64,000 nt of DNA from Polyangiaceae bacterium (lineage in GTDB: Bacteria > Myxococcota_A > Polyangia > Polyangiales > Polyangiaceae), in assembly GCA_033763455.1 (NCBI GenBank), contig JANRKO010000019.1, positions 128,001-192,000 of the forward strand, read 5' to 3'. Under the pieces are notes generated by a model. That model made no database searches. It worked only from the letters and a program-made list of their open reading frames with translations, and was not told the DNA's origin. The position numbers and the translations under genes are program-made. This document shows positions 4,100-50,949 of this stretch, piece after piece; position 1 is the first letter of the stretch, and each line of letters begins with the position of its first letter.

Positions 4100-5224
4100 T
4101 TGACCACCGCAGAGGCTTTGTGTGGTCGACTGCTCTTGGTGGGGTTTCCTGGGGTTTCGCTGGCGCCTGCTCTCCGGTCACGGATCCGTGATGGAAAAGT
4201 CGGTGGCGTGATCCTTTTTCGGCGAAACGTCGAAAATGTTCCCCAGGTGCATGCTTTATGTCAGGAGCTCGCGGAGGCTGCTTCGAATGATCTCTTCATC
4301 GGAGTAGATCAAGAAGGTGGGCGCGTAGCTCGGCTGCCCTCCCCTGTGCTCACGCTTCCGCCAGCGCGGACGCTTGGAAAAGGCTCAGTTGAGCTCACAC
4401 AAGATGCGGGTGCGCTCTTGGGGGCCGATCTTGCCGGGCTAGGCTTCAACTTGAATTTTGCGCCCGTTTTCGATGTGGATAGCAACCCCAACAACCCCGT
4501 GATTGGTGATCGAGCGTTCGCCGAAGAGCCAGCCCGAGTGGCAGCATTTGCCAGTGCATTTGCCCGCGGGCTCCAAAGCTCGGGGGTTGCGGCGTGTGCC
4601 AAACACTTCCCGGGCCACGGGGATACGCATCAAGATAGCCACCTTGAGTTACCGCTTGTTCAGCGTTCAGATTCGGAACTACGGGAGCTTGAAATATCGC
4701 CCTTTGTTGCGGCGATAGGCGCGGGGGTGGCTTCCATGATGACGGCTCACGTGGTTTATCCGGCGTTGGATCCTGAGCACCCGGCAACCCTGAGCTCGGC
4801 GATTTTGACCCAGATCTTGCGCCGAGAGCTTGGGTTTGGGGGGGTGATCTTTTCGGATGATCTCGAAATGAATGCCATCACGCGCGCCATGAACGTCGAA
4901 GATGCAGCCGTTTCGGCGATTGTTGCAGGGTGTGATGCGCTGTTGATTTGCCATTCAGAGGAGCGGCAAGCGGCGGCACTCACGGCGCTGGTGCGGGAAT
5001 ACGAAGGGTCGAAGGCGTTTCGCGAATTGGTGAATGCCGCGGAGGGCCGCGGTGCGGAGCTCCGGAGCAGGTATCCTGTGGCGGGATTTGTCGAGTATCA
5101 GCAGTGGCTGAATGCGCGGCTAGCCGAGCAGGCGCGTCGTGATGCGTTGACCGCGAAGCTTGCCCACCTAGCTTCGAATGGGCAAGCTTCCGCTGTTGCT
5201 TTGGACCCTACCGAGAAGGCTTAG
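4100..5224 (+). CDS. nagZ: Beta-N-acetylhexosaminidase (GH3)
   Basis: DQEGGRV, KHFPGHG-x4-DSH, SDDLEM. Confidence 0.92.
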   Translation: MTTAEALCGRLLLVGFPGVSLAPALRSRIRDGKVGGVILFRRNVENVPQVHALCQELAEAASNDLFIGVDQEGGRVARLPSPVLTLPPARTLGKGSVELTQDAGALLGADLAGLGFNLNFAPVFDVDSNPNNPVIGDRAFAEEPARVAAFASAFARGLQSSGVAACAKHFPGHGDTHQDSHLELPLVQRSDSELRELEISPFVAAIGAGVASMMTAHVVYPALDPEHPATLSSAILTQILRRELGFGGVIFSDDLEMNAITRAMNVEDAAVSAIVAGCDALLICHSEERQAAALTALVREYEGSKAFRELVNAAEGRGAELRSRYPVAGFVEYQQWLNARLAEQARRDALTAKLAHLASNGQASAVALDPTEKA

Positions 5225-5231
5225 CCAAAAA

Positions 5232-5810
5232 CTACTTGTTGAGTTCCAGCTTCACGTTGAGCGTGACTTCGTCGCCAACGACGACTCCGCCCTTGTCCAG
5301 GGACTTGTTCCAGTTGAGCCCGAAGTCTTGGCGCTTGATCTTTCCGCTTACCTTCACACCACGAACGCTCTTGCCCCAGGGGTTTTGCACAGCGTTGGAA
5401 AGTGTGGCGTCCAAAGTTACAGACTTGGTAATCCCCCGGATGGTGAGGTCCCCGGTGAGTTTGAAGGCCTTACCCGCCTTCTTGATCTTGGTGGATTTGA
5501 AGGTGATGTTGGGATGTTTTTCGGCATCAAAGAAGTCAGCGCTCTTGAGATGCTTGTCGCGATCCGCGTTATCGGTATTCACCGACGCCACGGGAATCGT
5601 GATCTCAACACTGCTCTTCGTGAGGTCCGCTTCGTCGAGCTTCACTGAGCCTTTGACGTCTCGGAAGTTTCCATCAACCTCAGAGATCACCATGTGAGAG
5701 ACGGTGAAGCCCACCCGGGAGTGCGAGCCGTCGATGGCCCAATCTACGGGGGCGGCGAGAGCGAGGGAACTGATCAGGGAGAGTGCACCAGCTAGAAAGA
5801 GAGTACGCAT
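5232..5810 (-). CDS. YceI family periplasmic protein
   Basis: Signal peptide; HSRVGF, RDKHLKSADFFDA, GDLTIRG, DFGLNWN. Confidence 0.92.
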   Translation of the reverse strand: MRTLFLAGALSLISSLALAAPVDWAIDGSHSRVGFTVSHMVISEVDGNFRDVKGSVKLDEADLTKSSVEITIPVASVNTDNADRDKHLKSADFFDAEKHPNITFKSTKIKKAGKAFKLTGDLTIRGITKSVTLDATLSNAVQNPWGKSVRGVKVSGKIKRQDFGLNWNKSLDKGGVVVGDEVTLNVKLELNK

Positions 5811-41061: not shown

Positions 41062-42174
41062 TCATGCGCCACTCTTGCCGTTGGTGAGAAGCTGCGCCGG
41101 GAGCAGTGATTGGAGCCCGTCGGCCCCAACCACCACCTTCACTTCTTGGATGTGCTGAGCGATCTCTTTCATCGCTTCCAGCTCCTTCAAGCGCAAAAGT
41201 ACCGGGTTTGCCTCCATAACCTTGGCCGTGTTCGCCAACGACCGCGTAGCGGCCGTTTCTTCACGACGTAAGATCACGTTGGCCGCAGCTTCCTTTTCGG
41301 CCTCGATCACGCGATTCAACAGGGCTTTCATTTCACCCGGCAAAACCACGTCTTTGACACCCACATGTTCGATCTTGACTCCCAGCGCCGTGGTGCATGC
41401 CGTAACCCGTCGCTCCATGAAGCGTGTCATTTCGTCACGCCCTTCGAGCAATTGATCGAGGGTTACCCCGGCCACGTATTCACGCGCGGCAAGCTGGGCT
41501 GCCGTGTAGACAGAATCCCGTAGGTTCTGCACCTTGGTTGCAACCACCACCGGATCAGAAACAGCGTATTCGGCCGTTAACGTCAAACGCAACGTCACCT
41601 TATCTCGCGTCATCAATTCCTGACCAGCAATGGTTACTTCCTGGCGCCGCATATCCACGACGCCAATCTCGGCCTTGGCTCCAGGGTGCGTCCACAACTT
41701 GTATCGGCCCGGCGGCAACACAGAAACGAAGCGCCCCTGCTCGTAACGCAAGCCCATTTGGTAGGCCAATACCGTTACGTCAATGTACTCATTGGACGGA
41801 ATCAACCGCTCCAACTCTGCCGACATTTCCGGCAAAGGCTGAGTAACATCGAACACCGAAAGCTGCACAGAAGCATCTACGGTCCAATAACGGTGCACCC
41901 CCGGGCGCAAAAATGCCACCGGCACACCATCTTTGAACAGGACACCTCGTTCACCAGAACCAATCACAACCTCACGAAACCAAGCAGAAGGCAGTTTTGC
42001 CCGGACTTCCGGCAGGGCTGAAAACAGCAAAACACTGGTATCGAACCGTTGCTCAGTGAGCCGCAACGACCAAACCCGATAACGGCCCGGGCCAAGTGCA
42101 GCTACAGGTAAGCCGTCCTTGAAAAGAACCACTCGTTCGTTTAACTTCACACGAATCAATTTTGACCACAACAT
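41062..42174 (-). CDS. SPFH/band-7 (slipin family) protein
   Basis: Three ER..LF.DG...L.PG.Y repeats; GQELMTRDKVTLRL; REETAATRSLANTAK..E.NPVLLRLKELE; GAGG SD. Confidence 0.9.
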   Translation of the reverse strand: MLWSKLIRVKLNERVVLFKDGLPVAALGPGRYRVWSLRLTEQRFDTSVLLFSALPEVRAKLPSAWFREVVIGSGERGVLFKDGVPVAFLRPGVHRYWTVDASVQLSVFDVTQPLPEMSAELERLIPSNEYIDVTVLAYQMGLRYEQGRFVSVLPPGRYKLWTHPGAKAEIGVVDMRRQEVTIAGQELMTRDKVTLRLTLTAEYAVSDPVVVATKVQNLRDSVYTAAQLAAREYVAGVTLDQLLEGRDEMTRFMERRVTACTTALGVKIEHVGVKDVVLPGEMKALLNRVIEAEKEAAANVILRREETAATRSLANTAKVMEANPVLLRLKELEAMKEIAQHIQEVKVVVGADGLQSLLPAQLLTNGKSGA

Positions 42175-42189
42175 GGGTCACCTCTTGGG

Positions 42190-42652
42190 TTGATGGACTC
42201 CCACCTTCGGCGTGAGCACCATGCCCGCGCCTTTGGAGATCGTCGATTGCTGGTATTTGCCGATACCGTCGGCTTTCGGCGAGCCCGCCTTTGGCCCTAG
42301 TAGTAGGGAGAACGGGACTCGGAAGATGTGCGGGGGCTCTGCAGACTGCTTGAGCCCGAAATTAGTGGCTCCAGAGGTTCAAAGCCCGGCGCCTAGGTTG
42401 AAGCGCAGTGTGAAGCCGCCGTAGCGGCCTCCGAAACGCTTCTCGCTTGAGCGTCTTGGGTCCGATGATTTGCGCGAAATCACTGCGATCTCACCCGGTT
42501 GCAGTCAGCGGGCGCCGAGGCGATGGCCGAAGCTTGCGAGCGAAATGTACGTGAGTTTGGGCAAAACTCGGGTCCGTTCGCCTTCCCCCAATGGCTGCGG
42601 AAGGGCTTTGAAAACCTCTGGAAACCTGGTGTGAATGCCTTTTTAAGGCCAG
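42190..42652 (-). ncRNA. Putative large structured ncRNA / 5' leader of the slipin gene
   Basis: 18-bp long-range helix (42603-42622 with 42370-42387) plus many hairpins, including GCCGC-UACG-GCGGC; no credible ORF. Confidence 0.55.
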
Positions 42653-42653
42653 G

Positions 42654-42722
42654 CCCTTTGCTCTACCCGATGAGCTACAACTCCGTGAGGAGAAGATCGG
42701 ATTCGAACCGACTACCGAAGGG
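42654..42722 (-). ncRNA. Circularly permuted tRNA-like module (YrlA/Y-RNA-like architecture)
   Basis: CCCTT-CGGTA-GTCGG TTCGAAT CCGAT-CTTCTCC TCAC GGAGTTG-TA-GCTC ATCGGGTA GAGC-A-AAGGG: T arm, closed acceptor stem, D arm, anticodon-like stem. Confidence 0.75.
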
Positions 42723-42724
42723 TT

Positions 42725-42864
42725 CTGCCGTGACAGGGCAGTGTCATCCATGACAAGCATGCTTCCGGGACACAACTACCGGACATCCATCGGTGACTCA
42801 CGAGGAGACCAATGCACGCAGTGTTGCGCCGTTTTGAAGCAAGCTTCGCGGGATTCGAACCCGC
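42725..42864 (-). ncRNA. Rearranged tRNA-Asp(GUC)-like element
   Basis: T arm GCGGG TTCGAAT CCCGC (42864-42848) lies upstream of a D-like hairpin and the anticodon arm CTGCC CTGTCAC GGCAG (42741-42725). Confidence 0.5.
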
Positions 42865-42866
42865 GG

Positions 42867-42940
42867 CACACAAGGCAAGATTCGAACTTGCACTCTACTG
42901 ATATAGAATCAGCGGCCTCTACCTTTTGGGCTACATGTGT
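42867..42940 (-). tRNA. tRNA or tRNA-like gene with CUA anticodon (amber suppressor-like)
   Basis: ACACATG TA GCC CAAAAGGTAGA GGC C GCTGA TTCTATA TCAGT AGAGT GCAAG TTCGAAT CTTGC CTTGTGT G; 6/7 acceptor pairs; no encoded CCA; U37 atypical. Confidence 0.75.
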
Positions 42941-42993
42941 TAATTGGTTGCATACGGTTGGTCCTCTTGCTTTGAATATCGAGCCGGGAAATG

Positions 42994-43025
42994 AAAAAAG
43001 CCGCCGAGGTAACCCTGGGCGGCTT
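42994..43025 (-). terminator. Rho-independent terminator (attenuator)
   Basis: AAGCCGCC CAGG GTTA CCTC GGCGGCTT TTTT. Confidence 0.85.
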
Positions 43026-43050
43026 CACACAGAAACACTGCGTAAACGCC

Positions 43051-43179
43051 CTAGGGGGAGCCCCGAAAATCGCGAAAATTGCCGACTAAGCTGCGCTCGC
43101 GGCGTGCACCACAGACGAAAGCCATGCCAAGATTTGGCAGCTGTTGTGCTGTGATGGTGAAACGGTGGAAGTGCTTCAT
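43051..43179 (-). CDS. Putative leader/attenuator peptide (42 aa)
   Basis: MKHFHRFTITAQQLPNLGMAFVCGARRERSLVGNFRDFRGSP-TAG between promoter and terminator; stop codon lies within the antiterminator strand. Confidence 0.6.
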   Translation of the reverse strand: MKHFHRFTITAQQLPNLGMAFVCGARRERSLVGNFRDFRGSP

Positions 43180-43190
43180 GAGGAGGCCGC

Positions 43191-43218
43191 AGAGTACGGA
43201 TCTAGAAAAACAAGTCAA
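43191..43218 (-). promoter_or_regulatory. Sigma70-type promoter
   Basis: TTGACT-16 nt-TACTCT, ending 11 nt before the leader ATG. Confidence 0.6.
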
Positions 43219-43304
43219 CACAATATCGCTCAGGCGTGTTTTTTTTACGAGGTGACGTTGCTCGCGATCCTCATTTCAAAGCTCCACCATGCAACACAGA
43301 GTCC

Positions 43305-43997
43305 CTAGAGGCGAGCCGTCCAGACGCGTTCAGCGCTGCCGGGGCGAGTCACGAACAAGCGCAGTGTTACCGGAGCCCGTTCACCCATGAGATAAAGCAC
43401 GCGGATTTTGTGCTCCCCGGGAGCCAGCGGGATGCTGCCCATCGCATTATGAGCCTTCCTGCTGTCGTCGTTGTTCACGACTTGGCGGCCATTAATCCAC
43501 AGGATGGCGGCGCCCTGGGTCTTTAACCGAAACTTATAGTTGCCAGCCGCCGAAACGGAGAATCTGCCAGTGTAGTTAATGGCAAACCAGTCGTAGCGCT
43601 CGGCGATTCCTGGGAAACCCGAAAAGTAGCGCTGAGCTACGTCCAAGCTATCCACGAACAAGCGACCTTGCGGGATGCACCGTTCAAGGCGCAGCAAAGA
43701 CACTGTGTTAGGCTTAACAAAGCACACTGTACCCGCGAGCGCTGCTTTGCGGCTGTGGCCAAACAAGGTGCTCCCCGACACCACAGGTACGCGACCACCT
43801 TTGTGACTCGCCCAACGCTCGCCCATGCCAGCGGGCGTGCCGCCTTGCTCGACACCGTACCCGTCCATTCTGTTGCGGCTAGCAGTTCGGATCCGTTCCC
43901 CCAACGACTGACCATGGGCCGCGCCAGCTAAGCTCAGCACTCCAAGTGCCACGCGACTCCCCCACTTCCACAACGTCCCGATCACCATGCGTTTCAC
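43305..43997 (-). CDS. Secreted PA14 domain protein
   Basis: Signal peptide; FAINYTG.F....GNYKFRL...GAAILWING..VV.ND. Confidence 0.75.
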   Translation of the reverse strand: MKRMVIGTLWKWGSRVALGVLSLAGAAHGQSLGERIRTASRNRMDGYGVEQGGTPAGMGERWASHKGGRVPVVSGSTLFGHSRKAALAGTVCFVKPNTVSLLRLERCIPQGRLFVDSLDVAQRYFSGFPGIAERYDWFAINYTGRFSVSAAGNYKFRLKTQGAAILWINGRQVVNNDDSRKAHNAMGSIPLAPGEHKIRVLYLMGERAPVTLRLFVTRPGSAERVWTARL

Positions 43998-44151: not shown

Positions 44152-45603
44152 ATGGATCTCAAACACTACGAAGTGGATCCGAAGAGTTACGACGAAATGT
44201 TCGACGCGAGCGGCGAGGTTCGGCCGGCCTATCGGGAACTTGCGCGGCGGCTCGGCGAAATGTCCGGTGAAGATTTCACCCGGCGGCAACGCACGGCAGA
44301 TATCTTGCTGCGAAACCAGGGCGTCACGTTCACCGTGTACTCGGACGACGCGGGCATTGAGAAGGTTTTTCCGTTCGACCCCATCCCGCGCCTGATGCCT
44401 GCCGAAGAATGGAGCCTGATTGAACGCGGCTTGATTCAGCGCATTGAGGCCTTGAACCTTTTCATTGCTGACATCTATGGGGATCAACACATCCTCAAAG
44501 ACAAAGTGGTTGATCCTGAGCTCATCTTAGGCGCCTCATTTTTCCGCCGTGAGATGATGGGGTTTAGGCCGCCTCGTGGGATCTATACCCACATCACCGG
44601 CACAGATTTAATTCGCGATGCCAACGGAAAATTCGTCGTCCTAGAAGACAATGCTCGGAACCCAAGCGGCGTGAGCTACGTGCTTGAATGCCGCGCAGTT
44701 CTGAAACGTGTCTTCCCGCTCTTGTTCGAAACGTACGGAGTGCGCCCGGTTGAAGATTACGCCAATTGGCTCCGCGACATGATGCAATTTGTAGCGCCAC
44801 GAGGCTCATCCAATCCAAGCATGGTGGTGCTGACGCCGGGCATCTACAATTCGGCGTACTTCGAACACAGCTTTTTAGCCCGCCAAATGGGTGTACCGCT
44901 CGTCGAAGGTCGAGATTTGGTCGTAAAAGATGGAATGGTGTGCATGCGCACGATTACCGGGCTGCAGCGGGTGGATGTTATCTACCGGCGCCTGGATGAT
45001 GACTTTCTGGACCCACTTATCGGTCGCCCTGATTCGGTATTGGGCTGCGCGGGGCTTTTCTCGGCGTATCGCAGTGGGGCGGTGACGCTCGTGAACGCAC
45101 CAGGCACAGGCGCCGTGGACGATAAAGCTGTCTACCCGTTCGTGCCGGACATGATTCGTTATTATCTTAAGAGTGAACCTATCATTGACAACGTTCCAAC
45201 CTATTTGGCAACCCGCCCGGATGAGCAGAAGTACATGCTCGAGAATATCCACGAACTGGTGATCAAACAGACCGACGCTTCCGGCGGCTACGGCATGTTG
45301 ATTGGCACGCACTCTACGGCAGAGGAACGCGAAGACTTCAAACGGCGCATCAAGGCTAAGCCCCGCTCCTACATTGGCCAACCCACTATCAGTCTCGGCA
45401 AACATCCCACAGTAATCGACGGTAAGCTGGAAGGGCGGTGCGTCGATTTGAGGCCTTATGTCCTTTATGGCGAGCGAATTTCGGTCATTCCAGGAGCCCT
45501 CACCCGGGTGGCACTCAGGAAGGGCTCTCTCGTTGTTAATTCAAGCCAAGGTGGTGGCTACAAAGATACCTGGGTGCTCACTGATAAGGGAGGCGCAGCC
45601 TAA
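44152..45603 (+). CDS. Circularly permuted type 2 ATP-grasp protein
   Basis: [52 protein letters not shown]. Confidence 0.93.
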
Positions 45604-46520
45604 TGTTAAGCCGAGTTGCAGACGCCCTTTATTGGATGAGCCGTTACGTCGAACGTGCTGAGCACGCAGCACGTGTCCTCGAGGTCACACGCCGCATGTT
45701 GATCGACGTTGAGCCCCTCGCCCCTCAAATGGCCAAACGCATTCGGGACGACGCATTTCGCAGCTTGGGCCTTCCGGGCGTCGACTTGCACGGAGCCATC
45801 TTCGACGAATCAGAGCCTGGGTCTATCGCCTCCTCTGTCTTCAGAGCCCGAGAGAATGCTCGTCAGGTGCAGGAGGTTATTAGCTCGGAGATGTGGGGCT
45901 ATATCAACGAGACGCACTGGATGCTCTCGGAGGCCCGTCGGGCGGGGCCTTCGCGTGAGCTGCCAGACCTCTTGGGTGAAGTAGTAAAGGCTGGGTTTCT
46001 TTGGGCTGGGGTTACGGATGCCACTATGGGTCGCGGGCCTGGTTGGTTGTTTATTCGCCTGGGCCAGTTCGTTGAACGAGCGGACCGAACGAGTCGAATT
46101 TTTGCGGCACAATGGGAGGCCATCGAGGAGTTGAGTACTGAGGCCATCCACACCTCGGGCGATCACTTTGCCTGGCTCACATTGCTTCGGAGTTGCGGAT
46201 CGCTTGAGGAGTATAGGAAGCGGTACCCAACACGCATGACAGCACGGCAAGTGGCGGATTTTATGCTGCTAGACGACACCTTTCCGCGCACCGTGCGCTA
46301 CTCAGTCTCAGTTGCGGCCGAATTTTCAAAACGCTTAACCCAGTTCGCAAGCCCCGAACGCGCCCGCGCTGAACGCGCGTTTGGGAGAGTCGCTTCTCGC
46401 ATCGAATACACCACCATCGACGAAGTTATGGAGACCGGCCCAGCTGTGTTCGTGAGAGGCGTTGCAGAAGAGATCTTGCTGGCGACAGCCGAGCTCCAGA
46501 GCGCGTATTTCTTGCACTAA
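45603..46520 (+). CDS. Alpha-E domain protein
   Basis: [35 protein letters not shown]. Confidence 0.92.
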   Translation: MLSRVADALYWMSRYVERAEHAARVLEVTRRMLIDVEPLAPQMAKRIRDDAFRSLGLPGVDLHGAIFDESEPGSIASSVFRARENARQVQEVISSEMWGYINETHWMLSEARRAGPSRELPDLLGEVVKAGFLWAGVTDATMGRGPGWLFIRLGQFVERADRTSRIFAAQWEAIEELSTEAIHTSGDHFAWLTLLRSCGSLEEYRKRYPTRMTARQVADFMLLDDTFPRTVRYSVSVAAEFSKRLTQFASPERARAERAFGRVASRIEYTTIDEVMETGPAVFVRGVAEEILLATAELQSAYFLH

Positions 46521-46529
46521 CGAGGACCC

Positions 46530-47549
46530 ATGCTGCTGTTCATCAAACACCTCACCGAACTCACGTATTCGGAGCCCATCACCGAAACGGTGATGGAAGT
46601 TCGCATGACTCCGCGAAACGATGCCCACCAAGTGCGGCGCGCGTTTCGCCTGGAGGTGGGGCCCAGCGCCACACCTTTCGAACACACAGATTGGCTCGGT
46701 AACCGCGTGCAGCAGTTCTCCATTTTGCCCCCGCACGATAAAGTCGTGATCTTGGCTCGGAGCGTGGTGGATACGCAGCCAAGGCACTCAGTGCTCGCAG
46801 ATGTGAATCGCGGGTCAGTGCCTCCGCTCGACCATCGAATCGGCGACTATTTGCGCTTCACCGGGCCGGTTGTGGACGTTCACAACCTCGACCGTTTGAT
46901 TCAAAATTTGGGGCTCGGGGCACCGGCGTCGCCTGAAGTTATTCTGCAACGAGTCGCGTCAAACCTGCGCGATCACGTGGAGTACCGTAAAGGCGTTACC
47001 ACGAGCGCCACGGCGATCGACAAGGTGCTCGAGCAGCGCGCTGGTGTGTGCCAGGATCTGGCTCACGTGGCCATTGGGATCTTGCGCAAGCTCGGCGTAC
47101 CAGCTCGCTACGTGTCGGGGTATTTCTATCGCGCGGATGGAAACAGCGAGATGGAGAGCCATGCTTGGTGCGAGGCGCACTTCCAGGGCACAGGTTGGCT
47201 CCCGATAGATCCCACCCACAAAACACTGGCGGGCGAAGGGCACGTTGCTATCGCGAGCGGTCGCGATTTCTCTGACGTTTCACCCAATCGCGGCGTCTAT
47301 CGCGGCAAGGGTGAAGAGAGCCTGCGCGTAAGAGTCACCGTGCAAGAGGTGCAAGAGGTACCCGAAGGCTTATTTGCCGTAGGCTCACCCGAAGTCGAGG
47401 TGCAGCCAATTGGAGGAGGCATGCTTCCCACCCACCGCGAAGCTCTCGAATACCAGCAAGAACAGCAGCAACAGCAGCAACAGCAGCAACAAGTACAGCA
47501 GCAACAGCAGCAACAAGTACAGCAACACCAATATTCGGCTGTGCACTGA
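46530..47549 (+). CDS. Transglutaminase family protein with poly-Gln tail
   Basis: GVCQDLAH, HAWCE, IDPT triad; C-terminal Q-tract. Confidence 0.92.
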   Translation: MLLFIKHLTELTYSEPITETVMEVRMTPRNDAHQVRRAFRLEVGPSATPFEHTDWLGNRVQQFSILPPHDKVVILARSVVDTQPRHSVLADVNRGSVPPLDHRIGDYLRFTGPVVDVHNLDRLIQNLGLGAPASPEVILQRVASNLRDHVEYRKGVTTSATAIDKVLEQRAGVCQDLAHVAIGILRKLGVPARYVSGYFYRADGNSEMESHAWCEAHFQGTGWLPIDPTHKTLAGEGHVAIASGRDFSDVSPNRGVYRGKGEESLRVRVTVQEVQEVPEGLFAVGSPEVEVQPIGGGMLPTHREALEYQQEQQQQQQQQQQVQQQQQQQVQQHQYSAVH

Positions 47550-47559
47550 GCCTTATCCC

Positions 47560-50500
47560 ATGGCCATTCGAGTTCGTCTCAGTCATCAAACGCGTTACCG
47601 TTACGACAAGCCCATTAACCTGGGCCCACAAACGGTTCGCCTCCGACCAGCACCCCACAACCGCACGCCCCTACACACGTATGGGCTTCACATCGAACCC
47701 AAGGGCCACTTTCTCAATTGGCAGCAGGATCCTTACGGCAATTATCTGGCAAGGCTGGTTTTCCCAGAAAAGGTAGACCATTTTGAAGTCACCGTCGATT
47801 TGGTCGCCGATCTTGAGGCGTACAATCCGTTTGATTTTTTCGTCGAGCCAGAAGCCGAGAATTTCCCTTTCAGCTACGAGCCCACACTTAAAAAAGAGCT
47901 AGAGCCCTATCTAGAGCAAGACCCCCTAACGCCCGCCCTCGCAGCTTTCATCGACAGTTTGAACAAGACACCGCGGAGAGTTAACGATTTCCTTGTAGAA
48001 ACGAACCGCGCTGTAAATGAGGCCGTTAGCTACATTATTCGCCTGGAGCCGGGCGTCCAAAGTCCCGAAGAAACGCTCACTCTGGCCAAGGGCTCGTGTC
48101 GAGATTCTGCATGGCTATTGGCGGTGGTGTTGCGAAAGCTAGGCCTGGCGGCCCGGTTTGTTTCCGGATACCTCATCCAGCTCACGCCAGATCAGCGCCC
48201 GATTGAAGGCGCCCAGGGCCCGCTCGCAGACTTTTGCGACTTGCATGCCTGGTGTGAAGTCTACGTTCCCGGCGCCGGTTGGATTGGGTTAGATGCAACG
48301 AGCGGGCTTCTGACAGCCGAAGGGCACATTCCGCTCGCGTGTTCCCCAAGCCCAGGTTCTGCGGCACCCATTTCGGGGCTGTTGGATGAAGCCGAAACCG
48401 ATTTCAGCCATCACATGTTTGTGGAACGCGTGGTGGACGTTCCCCGCGTCACCAAACCCTATACCGATGAAGAGTGGGCCGCCGTTGAGAAGTTCGGCAC
48501 CAAGGTGGATGAGCATCTAACGCGCTCAGACGTTCGCCTCACCGTAGGGGGTGAGCCCACCTTTGTGAGCACCGAATACCCGGATGACGCCGAATGGAAC
48601 ACGGACGCCCTTGGTAAAAATAAGGAAGGCCTTGCCGATAAGCTGATTCGCCGTTTGCGGAGCGACTGGTATCCCAAAAGCGCCCTCTACCATGCGCAGG
48701 GCAAGTGGTACCCGGGTGAGCCTTTGCCGCGGTGGGCTATTTCCTGCTTCTTTCGCACCGACGGCGTGCCCGTTTGGAATGATCCTGCGCTTATAGCCGA
48801 TACCAACAAGAGCTACGACCACGGGCCCAAAGAGGCCGAAGCCTTCGCAAAGCGTTTGATCGAGAATCTCGGGCTCGAGCGCCACGGCCTGATGCCAGCG
48901 TTTGAGGATGCTTGGTACTACATGTGGCGCGCGCGGCGTTTACCTGTAAACGTGATGCCGCTCGATAATCGCGTGGATGATGAGGTGGAGCGCGAGCGAA
49001 TAGCGGCCGTATTCAACCAAAAGCTATCCAGCGTGGTGGGCTATGTGCTCCCCCTGACGTATTGGGGTGGTTGGCGCAGTGGGTCTTTTTTCCTCAAAGA
49101 TGAACGCTGCTACCTGCTTCCTGGTGATTCGCCGATGGGTTACCGCTTGCCTTTGGATTCCCTACCGTGGATCGCCCAGGAAGATTGGGACGGCAACATT
49201 CCGGTAGATCCTTTCGCGCGCCAGCCTTCGTTGCCAAAGGCCTTTCACTTCCCGTTGATGCCGGCGCCCGCGATGCCGGCGCCTATCCGCCGTGTGGTGC
49301 CTTCTCTGCCGAAAGCCGAAGTTGCGCCCAACGGGCAGCCAAAAGGCGCCGTTCCTTCACCTCGCGGCGCCGCCCCAGGCAGCACTCATGCCGCGCCGTT
49401 CACGTCACCCGCACAGTTCGAGTCTGCCACGGGCGTGGTGCGCACCGCTTTGTGTGTCGAGCCCCGAGCCGGTCGTTTGCGGATCTTCTTGCCTCCACTG
49501 GAAACGCTCGAAGCGGCCCTTGAGCTCATCGCCGCCATCGAAACAACCGCGGCGCAGCTGAAGCTACCCGTGCAACTGGAAGGCTACGAACCCCCGAGGG
49601 ATCCGCGGCTCGGCGTGTTTCGTGTCACTCCGGATCCGGGTGTGATCGAGGTCAACGTGCCCCCGGTCTCCAGTTTTGCGGCGCAGAAGCTCCAAACCCT
49701 CTCGCTCTATGAACACGCTCGCCAAGTAAAGTTGAGCGCCGAAAAGTTTGATCTCGACGGCACCCACATCGGCAGCGGCGGTGGCTACCACCTCGTGCTT
49801 GGCGGAATGACGCCTGAAAATAGCCCATTTTTGCGGCGACCAGATTTGCTCGGCAGTTTGATTCGTTATTTTCACAACCACCCCAGCCTCTCTTATCTTT
49901 TCTCAGGGCGCTTCATCGGCCCCACCTCGCAATCGCCACGCGTGGATGAAGGCCGCAACGACAGCATCTACGAACTCGAAATAGCTCTCCAACAGTTGCC
50001 GCAAAAGGGGCAGAACGTTCCACCGTGGATTGTGGACCGTGTGCTCCGGCACTTGCTCGCAGACGTTACTGGCAACACCCATCGGACGCAGTTCTGCATC
50101 GATAAGCTCTATTCCCCCGATAGCGCTACAGGGCGGCTCGGCCTCTTGGAGCTGCGCTCTTTCGAAATGCCACCGCATGCCCAAATGGCGGTCGTGCAAC
50201 AGCTCTTAGTGGGCGCTATGGTCGCGAGTTTTTGGGAGCAACCTTATCGTGAAGATCTGGTGTCGTGGAACACGATGCTGCACGATAAATTCATGCTCCC
50301 CTACTTCGTAAAGCGTGACTTTTACGAGGTGCTGGCCGATCTTGAGCGACGCGGATTCAAGCTCGATCGCCACTGGTTCGAGCCACATTACCAGTTTCGG
50401 TTCCCGTATATCGGGCACGTGGTTAAGGATGCTGTAACCCTAGAGATACGTGGCGCTCTCGAACCCTGGAATGTGCTCGGAGAAGAGAGCACTGGAGCCG

Positions 50501-50949
50501 GGACTGCCCGCTACGTGGATTCATCAGTTGAACGCTTGCAGGTACGCGTATTCGGTGCCACACCCGGCCGGCATATTGTGTGTTGCAACAACGTGGAGCT
50601 ACCGCTTGTTGCCACTGGCGTGGAAGGCGAAATGGTAGGGGGCGTGCGTTATCGAGCCTGGCAACCCCCATCATGCCTTCACCCAACCATCGGCGTTCAG
50701 TCACCGCTTGCGTTCGATTTGTACGATCGTTGGAACGGCGTGGCGATTGCGGGGGCCACCTATCACGTAGTGCACCCGGGAGGCCGGGCGGATGAGGTCC
50801 GCCCCGTAAATGCAGCAGCCGCGGAAAGCCGCAGGCTCGCTCGCTTCGAGGCTCGCAGCGTAGGCACCCGTTTGGTTCAACCGCGGCGCCTGGAGCCCCA
50901 TCCGAAGTTCCCATTTACGCTCGATTTACGCCGGGCTTGGCTAGCCTAA
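47560..50949 (+). CDS. Transglutaminase + DUF2126 (putative amidoligase) fusion
   Basis: GSCRDSAWL, DLHAWCEVY, GLDAT; GGEPTFVS, GKWYPGEPLPRW, TPDPGVIEVN, GNTHR, FEMPPH. Confidence 0.92.
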   Translation: MAIRVRLSHQTRYRYDKPINLGPQTVRLRPAPHNRTPLHTYGLHIEPKGHFLNWQQDPYGNYLARLVFPEKVDHFEVTVDLVADLEAYNPFDFFVEPEAENFPFSYEPTLKKELEPYLEQDPLTPALAAFIDSLNKTPRRVNDFLVETNRAVNEAVSYIIRLEPGVQSPEETLTLAKGSCRDSAWLLAVVLRKLGLAARFVSGYLIQLTPDQRPIEGAQGPLADFCDLHAWCEVYVPGAGWIGLDATSGLLTAEGHIPLACSPSPGSAAPISGLLDEAETDFSHHMFVERVVDVPRVTKPYTDEEWAAVEKFGTKVDEHLTRSDVRLTVGGEPTFVSTEYPDDAEWNTDALGKNKEGLADKLIRRLRSDWYPKSALYHAQGKWYPGEPLPRWAISCFFRTDGVPVWNDPALIADTNKSYDHGPKEAEAFAKRLIENLGLERHGLMPAFEDAWYYMWRARRLPVNVMPLDNRVDDEVERERIAAVFNQKLSSVVGYVLPLTYWGGWRSGSFFLKDERCYLLPGDSPMGYRLPLDSLPWIAQEDWDGNIPVDPFARQPSLPKAFHFPLMPAPAMPAPIRRVVPSLPKAEVAPNGQPKGAVPSPRGAAPGSTHAAPFTSPAQFESATGVVRTALCVEPRAGRLRIFLPPLETLEAALELIAAIETTAAQLKLPVQLEGYEPPRDPRLGVFRVTPDPGVIEVNVPPVSSFAAQKLQTLSLYEHARQVKLSAEKFDLDGTHIGSGGGYHLVLGGMTPENSPFLRRPDLLGSLIRYFHNHPSLSYLFSGRFIGPTSQSPRVDEGRNDSIYELEIALQQLPQKGQNVPPWIVDRVLRHLLADVTGNTHRTQFCIDKLYSPDSATGRLGLLELRSFEMPPHAQMAVVQQLLVGAMVASFWEQPYREDLVSWNTMLHDKFMLPYFVKRDFYEVLADLERRGFKLDRHWFEPHYQFRFPYIGHVVKDAVTLEIRGALEPWNVLGEESTGAGTARYVDSSVERLQVRVFGATPGRHIVCCNNVELPLVATGVEGEMVGGVRYRAWQPPSCLHPTIGVQSPLAFDLYDRWNGVAIAGATYHVVHPGGRADEVRPVNAAAAESRRLARFEARSVGTRLVQPRRLEPHPKFPFTLDLRRAWLA

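Follow-up and report, generated by a model that had tools for sequence, protein, structure and literature searches.

The window, a stretch of 64,000 nucleotides of DNA, carries on its minus strand a short open reading frame that ends next to a terminator-like hairpin. The question raised by this locus is whether the two form a switch sensing translation and, if so, which genes such a switch would control. A preliminary description of the DNA had recognised here a leader-peptide attenuator with its stop codon inside the antiterminator, without seeing the regulated unit, which is predicted to be a decayed operon of tRNA genes. We regard it as likely, judging from the sequence comparisons presented below, that the element is a ribosome-dependent leader-peptide transcription attenuator heading a horizontally spread long tRNA array operon, decayed here to one tRNA, tRNA-like RNAs and an SPFH gene. 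The parts are listed in Table 1; their order on the common strand is a PA14-domain gene (ending at 43305), the leader, the tRNA, the tRNA-like RNAs and the SPFH gene.

Table 1. Positions of the leader, of its predicted RNA structures and of the genes behind it in the window
Feature	Position	Strand	Basis
Promoter-like site: -35 TTGACT (43218-43213), 16-nt spacer, -10 TACTCT (43196-43191)	43191..43218	-	sequence
Leader ORF: ATG 43179, 42 codons, UAG 43053-43051	43051..43179	-	sequence, ORF list
GGGG run, 7 nt 5' of the UAG	43061..43064	-	sequence
Predicted antiterminator 5' strand (stop box CCCCUAGGGCG, contains the UAG)	43047..43057	-	partial-transcript fold
Small spacer hairpin, stop box to terminator	43025..43045	-	folding
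Intrinsic terminator: 8 bp + 3 bp hairpin, U6	42994..43024	-	sequence, folding
tRNA, anticodon CUA	42865..42940	-	ARAGORN; Rfam tRNA 50.3 bits
tRNA-like remnants	42656..42864	-	Rfam, below threshold
SPFH/Band-7 gene, last of the unit	41062..42174	-	Pfam PF01145, E 3e-29

The leader ORF encodes a peptide of the form MKHF...FRGSP, and since its ATG is located only 11 nt past the -10 hexamer, the leader mRNA would be leaderless or nearly so, as had been proposed. This frame is nested in a longer 56-aa GTG frame (43051..43221) of the ORF list and many frames of 30-50 aa are listed in the same DNA, so that the 42-codon frame of the window, taken alone, is not beyond chance. A scan for consensus promoters called none at the leader, the -10 hexamer matching TATAAT at 3 of 6 positions, and the terminator escaped the same simple scan, whose loop limit excluded it. 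The base composition around the locus showed no anomaly. The case for the element being more than a chance arrangement rests on its conservation among relatives.

Folding of the RNA from 42990 to 43195 gave -75.6 kcal/mol (z -2.65 versus 200 shuffles) and displayed the terminator together with a hairpin just 5' of it. The terminator reads AAGCCGCC-C-AGG-GUUA-CCU-C-GGCGGCUU (43024-42999), followed by U's to 42994, and its 5' arm (43024-43012) is common to the terminator and to the predicted antiterminator. In the latter, the UAG-containing strand CCCUAGGGCG (43056-43047) pairs, with one bulged base, with the strand CGCCCAGGG (43021-43013) of the terminator arm, at the very positions given in the preliminary description, and the energy computed for the duplex of stop box and arm is -20.7 kcal/mol. 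Both of the alternative structures anticipated there were recovered by folding: when the transcript is truncated halfway through the terminator, its stop box is found paired with the 5' arm of the terminator (-26.8 kcal/mol), and the uncut piece adopts the terminator hairpin (-34.1 kcal/mol). An intrinsic terminator thus stands between the leader and the genes presumed to be regulated, the place it occupies in leader-peptide attenuators.

Direct comparison retrieved little. A DNA search with 42600-43310 in 40 relatives returned the window itself only, a sensitive blastn search against five loci gave a match limited to the tRNA-like part, and tblastn with the leader peptide produced only noise; BLAST fails on the leader because its sequence is too diverged. 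Three genomes of the same genus are without the SPFH gene, which, together with the lack of a DNA match in the 40 relatives, marks the locus as accessory. Homologues of the SPFH protein (61-70% identity) were found in five other genera. A YrlA-like element is situated some hundreds of bases upstream of the SPFH gene in all five of these loci (30-46 bits), and tRNA genes lie near three of the five, the wider stretches holding 23, 11 and 8 tRNA genes. Scanning species genomes with an SPFH alignment yielded 80 loci, all from Myxococcota by their titles with Polyangiaceae as the nearest; one of them (L051) comes from a cultured strain, Labilithrix luteola DSM 27648.

Two sets of leader elements were assembled. 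The first was collected with the terminator motif A(A/G)GCCGCC-N4-24-GGCGGC(T/C)T in 81 sources (the 80 SPFH loci and the window) and comprises 21 elements in 19 of these sources, all of them 5' of the SPFH gene and co-directional with it. The second set has its origin in 401 genomes of the order (Polyangiaceae-type Myxococcota), which were searched with a sequence pattern. This search matched in 120 genomes, a tally that was not used because the reversed-pattern control matched often too and because about 0.5 matches per genome are expected by chance according to our own arithmetic. From it we took 40 regions whose match starts with TAGGCGG or TAGGGCG, of about 45 such matches, leaving out two unpublished genomes and duplicates. 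The selection relied on TAGG(C/G)(C/G)G plus a terminator and was blind to tRNA and SPFH genes; it gave 42 elements in 40 loci. The leader architecture is consequently represented by 63 elements (21 + 42, window included), 53 of which form the alignment called here A3; L043, L052, L061 and the TAA copy of L092 were dropped, and L125, L126, L127, L130, L135 and L156 were also left out. A covariance model built from A3 has a single match in the genome that carries the window, at this locus (54.1 bits, E 1.7e-8), and the 6.56 Mb of that genome contain just two occurrences of the terminator motif. In a sample of 151 genomes of the phylum (G000 included), the matches of the model outside the order were only weak (31-40 bits); none of the eight that were fetched heads a tRNA array, and two of these eight are terminators located just after a Val-Asp tRNA pair.

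Conservation of the reading frame was examined in both sets. A promoter layout TTGAC[AGT]-16 to 18 nt-(T/C)AnnnW precedes 14 of the 21 first-set elements and is missing by pattern in 7. In every one of the 14 promoter-bearing elements, an uninterrupted frame runs from the first ATG past the -10 to the boxed stop, and in 10 of them this ATG is 9-14 nt from the -10, a leaderless-like distance. The corresponding ORFs are 13-58 codons long and belong to 9 lineage groups, as grouped by ourselves. The same promoter-based test is uninformative in the second set because the promoter pattern is loose there: the first ATG was in frame in 7/16 cases versus a chance of 1 in 3, which is not significant, and it lay just 2-4 nt from the putative -10 in 7/16. 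When the three frames upstream of the stop are compared, the stop frame is the longest open one in 17/21 elements of the first set (p 1e-5) and in 31/42 of the second (p 1e-7), that is in 48 of 63 elements where 21 were expected; all p values given here ignore relatedness, and related sequences inflate them. It should also be noted that the first-set stops were picked as the end of the longest ATG frame, a selection that favours finding a frame. A short leader frame appears to be conserved in the family and is putatively translated, in line with the earlier proposal of a leader ORF.

These counts bear on another explanation, according to which the element is an RNA switch whose signal is not the ribosome but, for example, a protein, a ligand or an uncharged tRNA bound at the box or the hairpin, with the open frame as a mere by-product of GC-rich DNA. 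Such DNA does have long open frames in every phase, and the letters conserved in the family are nucleotides rather than residues, as seen for UAGGCGG and for a GGAGG that precedes the stop in differing phases. We nevertheless consider this explanation quite improbable, as the stop frame is open in more elements than either of the others, all 14 first ATGs are in register with the stop, and the body of the leader is too variable for a ligand pocket. An Rfam search of 42994-43218 found neither a T-box nor any other family at E up to 1, and a T-box riboswitch was rejected as a candidate on this result.

While the leader frame is apparently kept, the peptide is not. Between close pairs, the substitutions favour no codon position (10/13/9 and 32/28/27 in two examples) and are predominantly non-synonymous. 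The last residue is Pro in 16/63, Thr in 12/63 and Ser in 9/63 peptides; these endings are explained by NCC codons, which pair with the GG of the arm. The likeness of the FRGSP ending to RAPP/RGPP-type arrest motifs, put forward from the window alone, did not survive the comparison, and an arrest motif was rejected because the last five residues vary among the 63 elements and the peptide sequences drift. No codon run was seen by eye in the 42-aa peptide or in those of the relatives, which agrees with the earlier remark that an amino-acid run is lacking. By eye, and without a background comparison, the peptide of the window uses 18 of the 20 amino acids, W and Y being absent.

In the first set, which was collected without requiring TAG, the boxed stop is TAG in 20/21 elements and TAA in 1/21, and it is located 23-42 nt 5' of the terminator. 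Upon folding, nearly all of the 21 partial transcripts of the first set show the stop box paired with the 5' arm of the terminator, and this pairing encloses a small hairpin of variable sequence. The sequence of the spacer hairpin is not conserved in the family, and the spacers fold better than their shuffles (mean z -1.82; z below -1 in 49/63). When each box was paired with its own arm, the duplexes of the first set averaged -17.1 kcal/mol versus -15.0 for cross pairs (p 0.0002); for the pooled 63 elements the values were -19.3 versus -17.5 kcal/mol, and the observed mean was not attained in any of 20000 permutations. The box:arm duplex spans the stop in 60/63 elements. These results bear out the central point of the preliminary description, namely that the UAG is part of an antiterminator competing for the terminator 5' arm.

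Column-wise covariation lends modest support to the same pairing. In A3, 71.4% of the antiterminator cells pair, versus 29-53% when the strands are slid, four antiterminator pairs are changed on both sides, and as high a score is attained by 9 of 500 shuffles; at columns 12:83, for instance, the pairs are CG 14, AU 5, UA 5 and UG 3. The terminator has 88% of its cells paired across 53 relatives, its core being fixed by the search motif. Full-length folds favour the terminator thermodynamically, and antitermination would therefore depend on kinetics. The antiterminator and the terminator are predicted to be mutually exclusive, and we infer the dependence on the ribosome solely from their geometry.

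A further element of this geometry lies just before the stop. GGAG or GAGG ends 4-13 nt before the stop codon in 38/63 elements, with a sharp peak at 8-9 nt, and GGAGG occurs in differing codon phases from one element to another. The GGGG run of the window would be a weak counterpart of the GGAGG that relatives carry 8 nt before the stop.

On the attenuator reading, the first ribosome would follow RNA polymerase along the leader. In normally translating cells it would reach the UAG and cover the stop box, leaving the terminator arm free, so that the terminator would form and transcription would end. With the ribosome lagging, stalled within the frame or missing, the arm would be captured by the stop box, no terminator would form and the tRNA genes would be transcribed. 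GGAGG may hold the ribosome at the UAG by anti-Shine-Dalgarno pairing: with the UAG in the A site, GGAGG would be placed 5 nt before the P-site (last sense) codon, and a 5-nt gap is the spacing of a start-site Shine-Dalgarno sequence. Because the leaders have no codon run and their peptide is not conserved, such a sensor would report the general speed of translation, as had been suggested earlier. The leader would thereby probably turn on spare tRNA clusters in a group of soil myxobacteria upon faltering protein synthesis. The direction of the switch as set out here is held with somewhat less confidence than the attenuator itself. Against an attenuator speak the weak -10 of the window and the seven first-set elements without a TTGAC promoter; also, GGAGG could pair instead with the C-rich codons before the stop.

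What lies behind the leader was determined in both sets. In the second set, tRNA genes on the same strand are found within 2.5 kb downstream of 32 of the 42 elements, at least two of them in 29/42 and up to 18, and in 0/42 is an opposite-strand tRNA present within that distance. In the first set, the leader is positioned just before the first tRNA wherever the locus reaches the array start; the leader is followed by 13 tRNAs in L020, 28 in L024, 23 plus 6 beyond the SPFH gene in L042, and 19 plus 7 in L045. No tRNA is left between leader and SPFH gene in 10 of the 19 first-set sources. Terminator and first tRNA are separated by 55 to about 550 nt. Arrays in relatives that share the leader or the SPFH gene comprise 8-28 tRNAs, and the SPFH homologues lie within or next to the tRNA arrays, on the same strand.

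Some arrays present further peculiarities. Two leader-terminator pairs stand in tandem before one array in L087, L092, L139, L144 and L174, about 290-780 nt apart, and the second leader is without a TTGAC promoter of its own. Array tRNAs with the Leu anticodons CAA, CAG, GAG and AAG (L016, L019-L024, L026, L048 and other array loci) are of class-I size, 74-77 nt, and do not have the long variable arm that is expected of a bacterial tRNA-Leu. An ORF showing an HNH-like Cys/His pattern, recognised by eye, is located within or beside the tRNA-like region in L016 (about 1950-2440) and L021 (about 4855-5375).

The association with arrays also weighs against the explanation that the element is a small transcription unit of its own, a small RNA or small-protein gene ended by its own terminator, with the tRNAs driven from elsewhere and no switching. 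The terminator being the stable final fold would suit this explanation, and a promoter could hide in the gap that separates the terminator from the first tRNA. A functional leader protein is however unlikely, in view of the unconserved peptide and of substitutions spread alike over all codon positions, and a plain sRNA would not maintain a frame aligned with a boxed stop. With the stop box and the terminator arm co-varying, the element tied to array heads in 32/42 cases and tandem double copies in the five loci named above, we judge a small independent unit unlikely, though it is the first alternative to be kept in mind.

Returning to the attenuator and to the window itself, a single intact tRNA gene, tRNA(CUA), remains behind the leader, where a long tRNA array would have many. 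The locus is nevertheless best seen as a decayed long tRNA array, owing to its tRNA-like fragments and to its positional match to L016: tRNA(CUA) occupies the position of the tRNA 'Leu(CAA)' of that locus, and a T-arm hairpin (CGCGGGUUCGAWUCCCGCG) directly 3' of tRNA(CUA) is likewise found 3' of the 'Leu(CAA)'. Its nearest sequences are the short Leu-anticodon tRNAs of related arrays (55/76). It is the only CUA anticodon among 315 tRNAs found in 81 sources, and in the Rfam alignment it shows, by eye, U37, G73 and a U:U acceptor mismatch. The tRNA complement of the host genome is ordinary, with 46 tRNAs and a tmRNA, and includes a single CUA tRNA, the one at this locus. TAG terminates 967 of 3398 long open frames in this genome, which points to the standard code, and a genetic-code change was rejected for that reason. 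The gene may be either decayed or an amber suppressor, and in the latter case it would read the leader's own UAG. Little remains to regulate in this genome, a point against the attenuator.

The nature of the stop codon leads to a further explanation, in which stop decoding rather than elongation is sensed: the UAG, together with the GGAGG tether, would serve as a gauge of termination efficiency or of amber suppression, and ribosomes reading through would melt the terminator. UAG is read by release factor 1 only. The stop is UAG in 20/21 elements, the position of GGAGG suits a ribosome that has UAG in the A site, no further stop closes the post-UAG frame before the end of the terminator in 51/63 elements, and tRNA(CUA) is just downstream in the window. 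However, the other two frames are open past the terminator nearly as often (46/63 and 39/63), no second CUA exists among the 315 tRNAs, tRNA(CUA) itself has U37, G73 and an acceptor mismatch, and UAG may persist simply because U-A-G-G pairs with the arm. We therefore give a sensor of stop decoding very little credence.

A bolder version of the attenuator is a 'stop-codon occupancy timer', in which the dwell of the terminating ribosome would decide on the synthesis of reserve tRNAs, re-used in this genome as a self-amplifying inducible amber suppressor. Here a leaderless test frame would end at a UAG tethered by an internal Shine-Dalgarno-like GGAGG, and tRNA(CUA) would carry ribosomes through the leader UAG and across the terminator, raising its own synthesis. 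The frame past the leader UAG of the window stays open for 36 more codons, to the UAA at 42942-42940, so that read-through ribosomes would cross the terminator. We mention this version as a long shot.

As compared with known systems, the element first recalls the trp, his, leu and pheA-type attenuators, in which a ribosome at the leader stop masks the competing strand and the terminator forms. With these it shares a short leader frame, an intrinsic terminator and, close to the end of the frame, an upstream strand that competes for pairing. By contrast, the myxobacterial leaders have no regulatory codon run and no clear first segment (1:2 pairing), start leaderless in most members, end nearly always with a UAG that lies within the competing strand, with GGAGG 8 nt before it, and would regulate tRNAs rather than enzymes. 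The logic is that of a trp-type attenuator; the tRNA-array target, the leaderless start, the UAG in the antiterminator and the GGAGG tether are not. The leaders of vmlR, lmo0919 and mef/mel are a second comparison: in these, a stalled ribosome frees an antiterminator, by means of drug-specific stalling peptides, and resistance genes follow. A ribosome stalled in a short leader and freeing an antiterminator, with general inhibition as the read-out, would be common to both, whereas the myxobacterial leader peptide is not conserved and is followed by tRNA genes.

To our knowledge, long tRNA arrays are widespread, move horizontally and are mostly unexplained, that of Anabaena being the only one studied. 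The long tRNA array of Anabaena sp. PCC 7120 (the trn operon) is induced by translation inhibitors and is controlled by the ribbon-helix-helix repressor TrcR, whose protein level falls under stress (PMC8421152; PMC10272220). The loci of the relatives are long arrays in the sense of PMC8421152, and they resemble the trn array in being supernumerary, horizontally spread and co-directional, with at least 20 tRNA genes; the Anabaena array is silent until translation is impaired. They differ from it in their predicted control by a cis-acting leader and terminator instead of TrcR, and in carrying an SPFH gene and a permuted tRNA-like RNA. A sensor of general translation would fit the physiology of the Anabaena array. 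Literature searches, supplements excepted, returned no description of such leaders before tRNA arrays, and the text of PMC8421152 contains neither 'attenuat' nor 'terminator' nor 'Myxococc'.

If the proposed attenuator is real, a cis-acting, ribosome-sensing leader in front of the arrays of an entire order of Myxococcota would mean that the logic seen in Anabaena is reached by a second, independent route, and the view of long arrays as emergency tRNA reserves, for instance against antibiotics or tRNA-cutting toxins, would be strengthened. Besides enzyme operons, tRNA genes would moreover become a target of leader-peptide attenuation. Three design features are unusual and can be tested, namely the leaderless start, the UAG within the antiterminator and the Shine-Dalgarno-like tether before the stop, and since a cultured carrier, L. 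luteola DSM 27648, exists, the question is open to direct experiment.

The region between tRNA(CUA) and the SPFH gene contains further tRNA-like RNA. A piece at 42754-42696 (minus strand) scored 20.3 bits in Rfam, below threshold, and a permuted tRNA-like, YrlA-like RNA at 42720-42656 (minus strand) scored 27.4 bits with the Rfam YrlA model, the gathering score of which is 69. No match to a TROVE/Rsr gene was found in the host genome (93.67% complete), and an identity as a Y RNA acting with Rsr was rejected on these two grounds. The permuted RNA is laid out as a T-arm, a closed acceptor-like hairpin and a D-arm (42656-42754, minus strand; L014-L029, L058, L069) and sits 330-480 nt 5' of the SPFH gene; a regular-expression search detected it in 34/81 sources. 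In relatives it then adds a 5-bp stem, ACGAC/GUCGU, with a 7-nt anticodon-like loop, the middle triplets of which, read by eye, vary by locus (GAU, UGC, CAA, UUU, ACG, GAA, AAA).

Part of the stretch is represented in twelve runs, two of them metatranscriptomes. The contigs of these two metatranscriptome runs, from two studies, cover 42689-42851 and 42653-42851, that is the tRNA-like RNA, and neither run has a contig on the leader. Both contigs end at 42851, inside the conserved T-loop, which may be an assembly break.

Additional hairpins were noticed before the SPFH gene. A conserved small hairpin, GCCGRCGGNAYCGGC, lies 5' of its start at 42259-42273 (minus strand) and is found also just before the SPFH start in L010, L011, L016, L020, L025 and L028; several relatives have a hairpin followed by a T-run 40-90 nt 5' of the SPFH start. 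These hairpins may be a second control point for SPFH. On the opposite strand, a divergent operon (44152-50949, plus strand) encodes circularly permuted ATP-grasp, Alpha-E, transglutaminase-like and DUF2126 amidoligase-like proteins; this operon has an ordinary appearance and seems to have no bearing on the leader.
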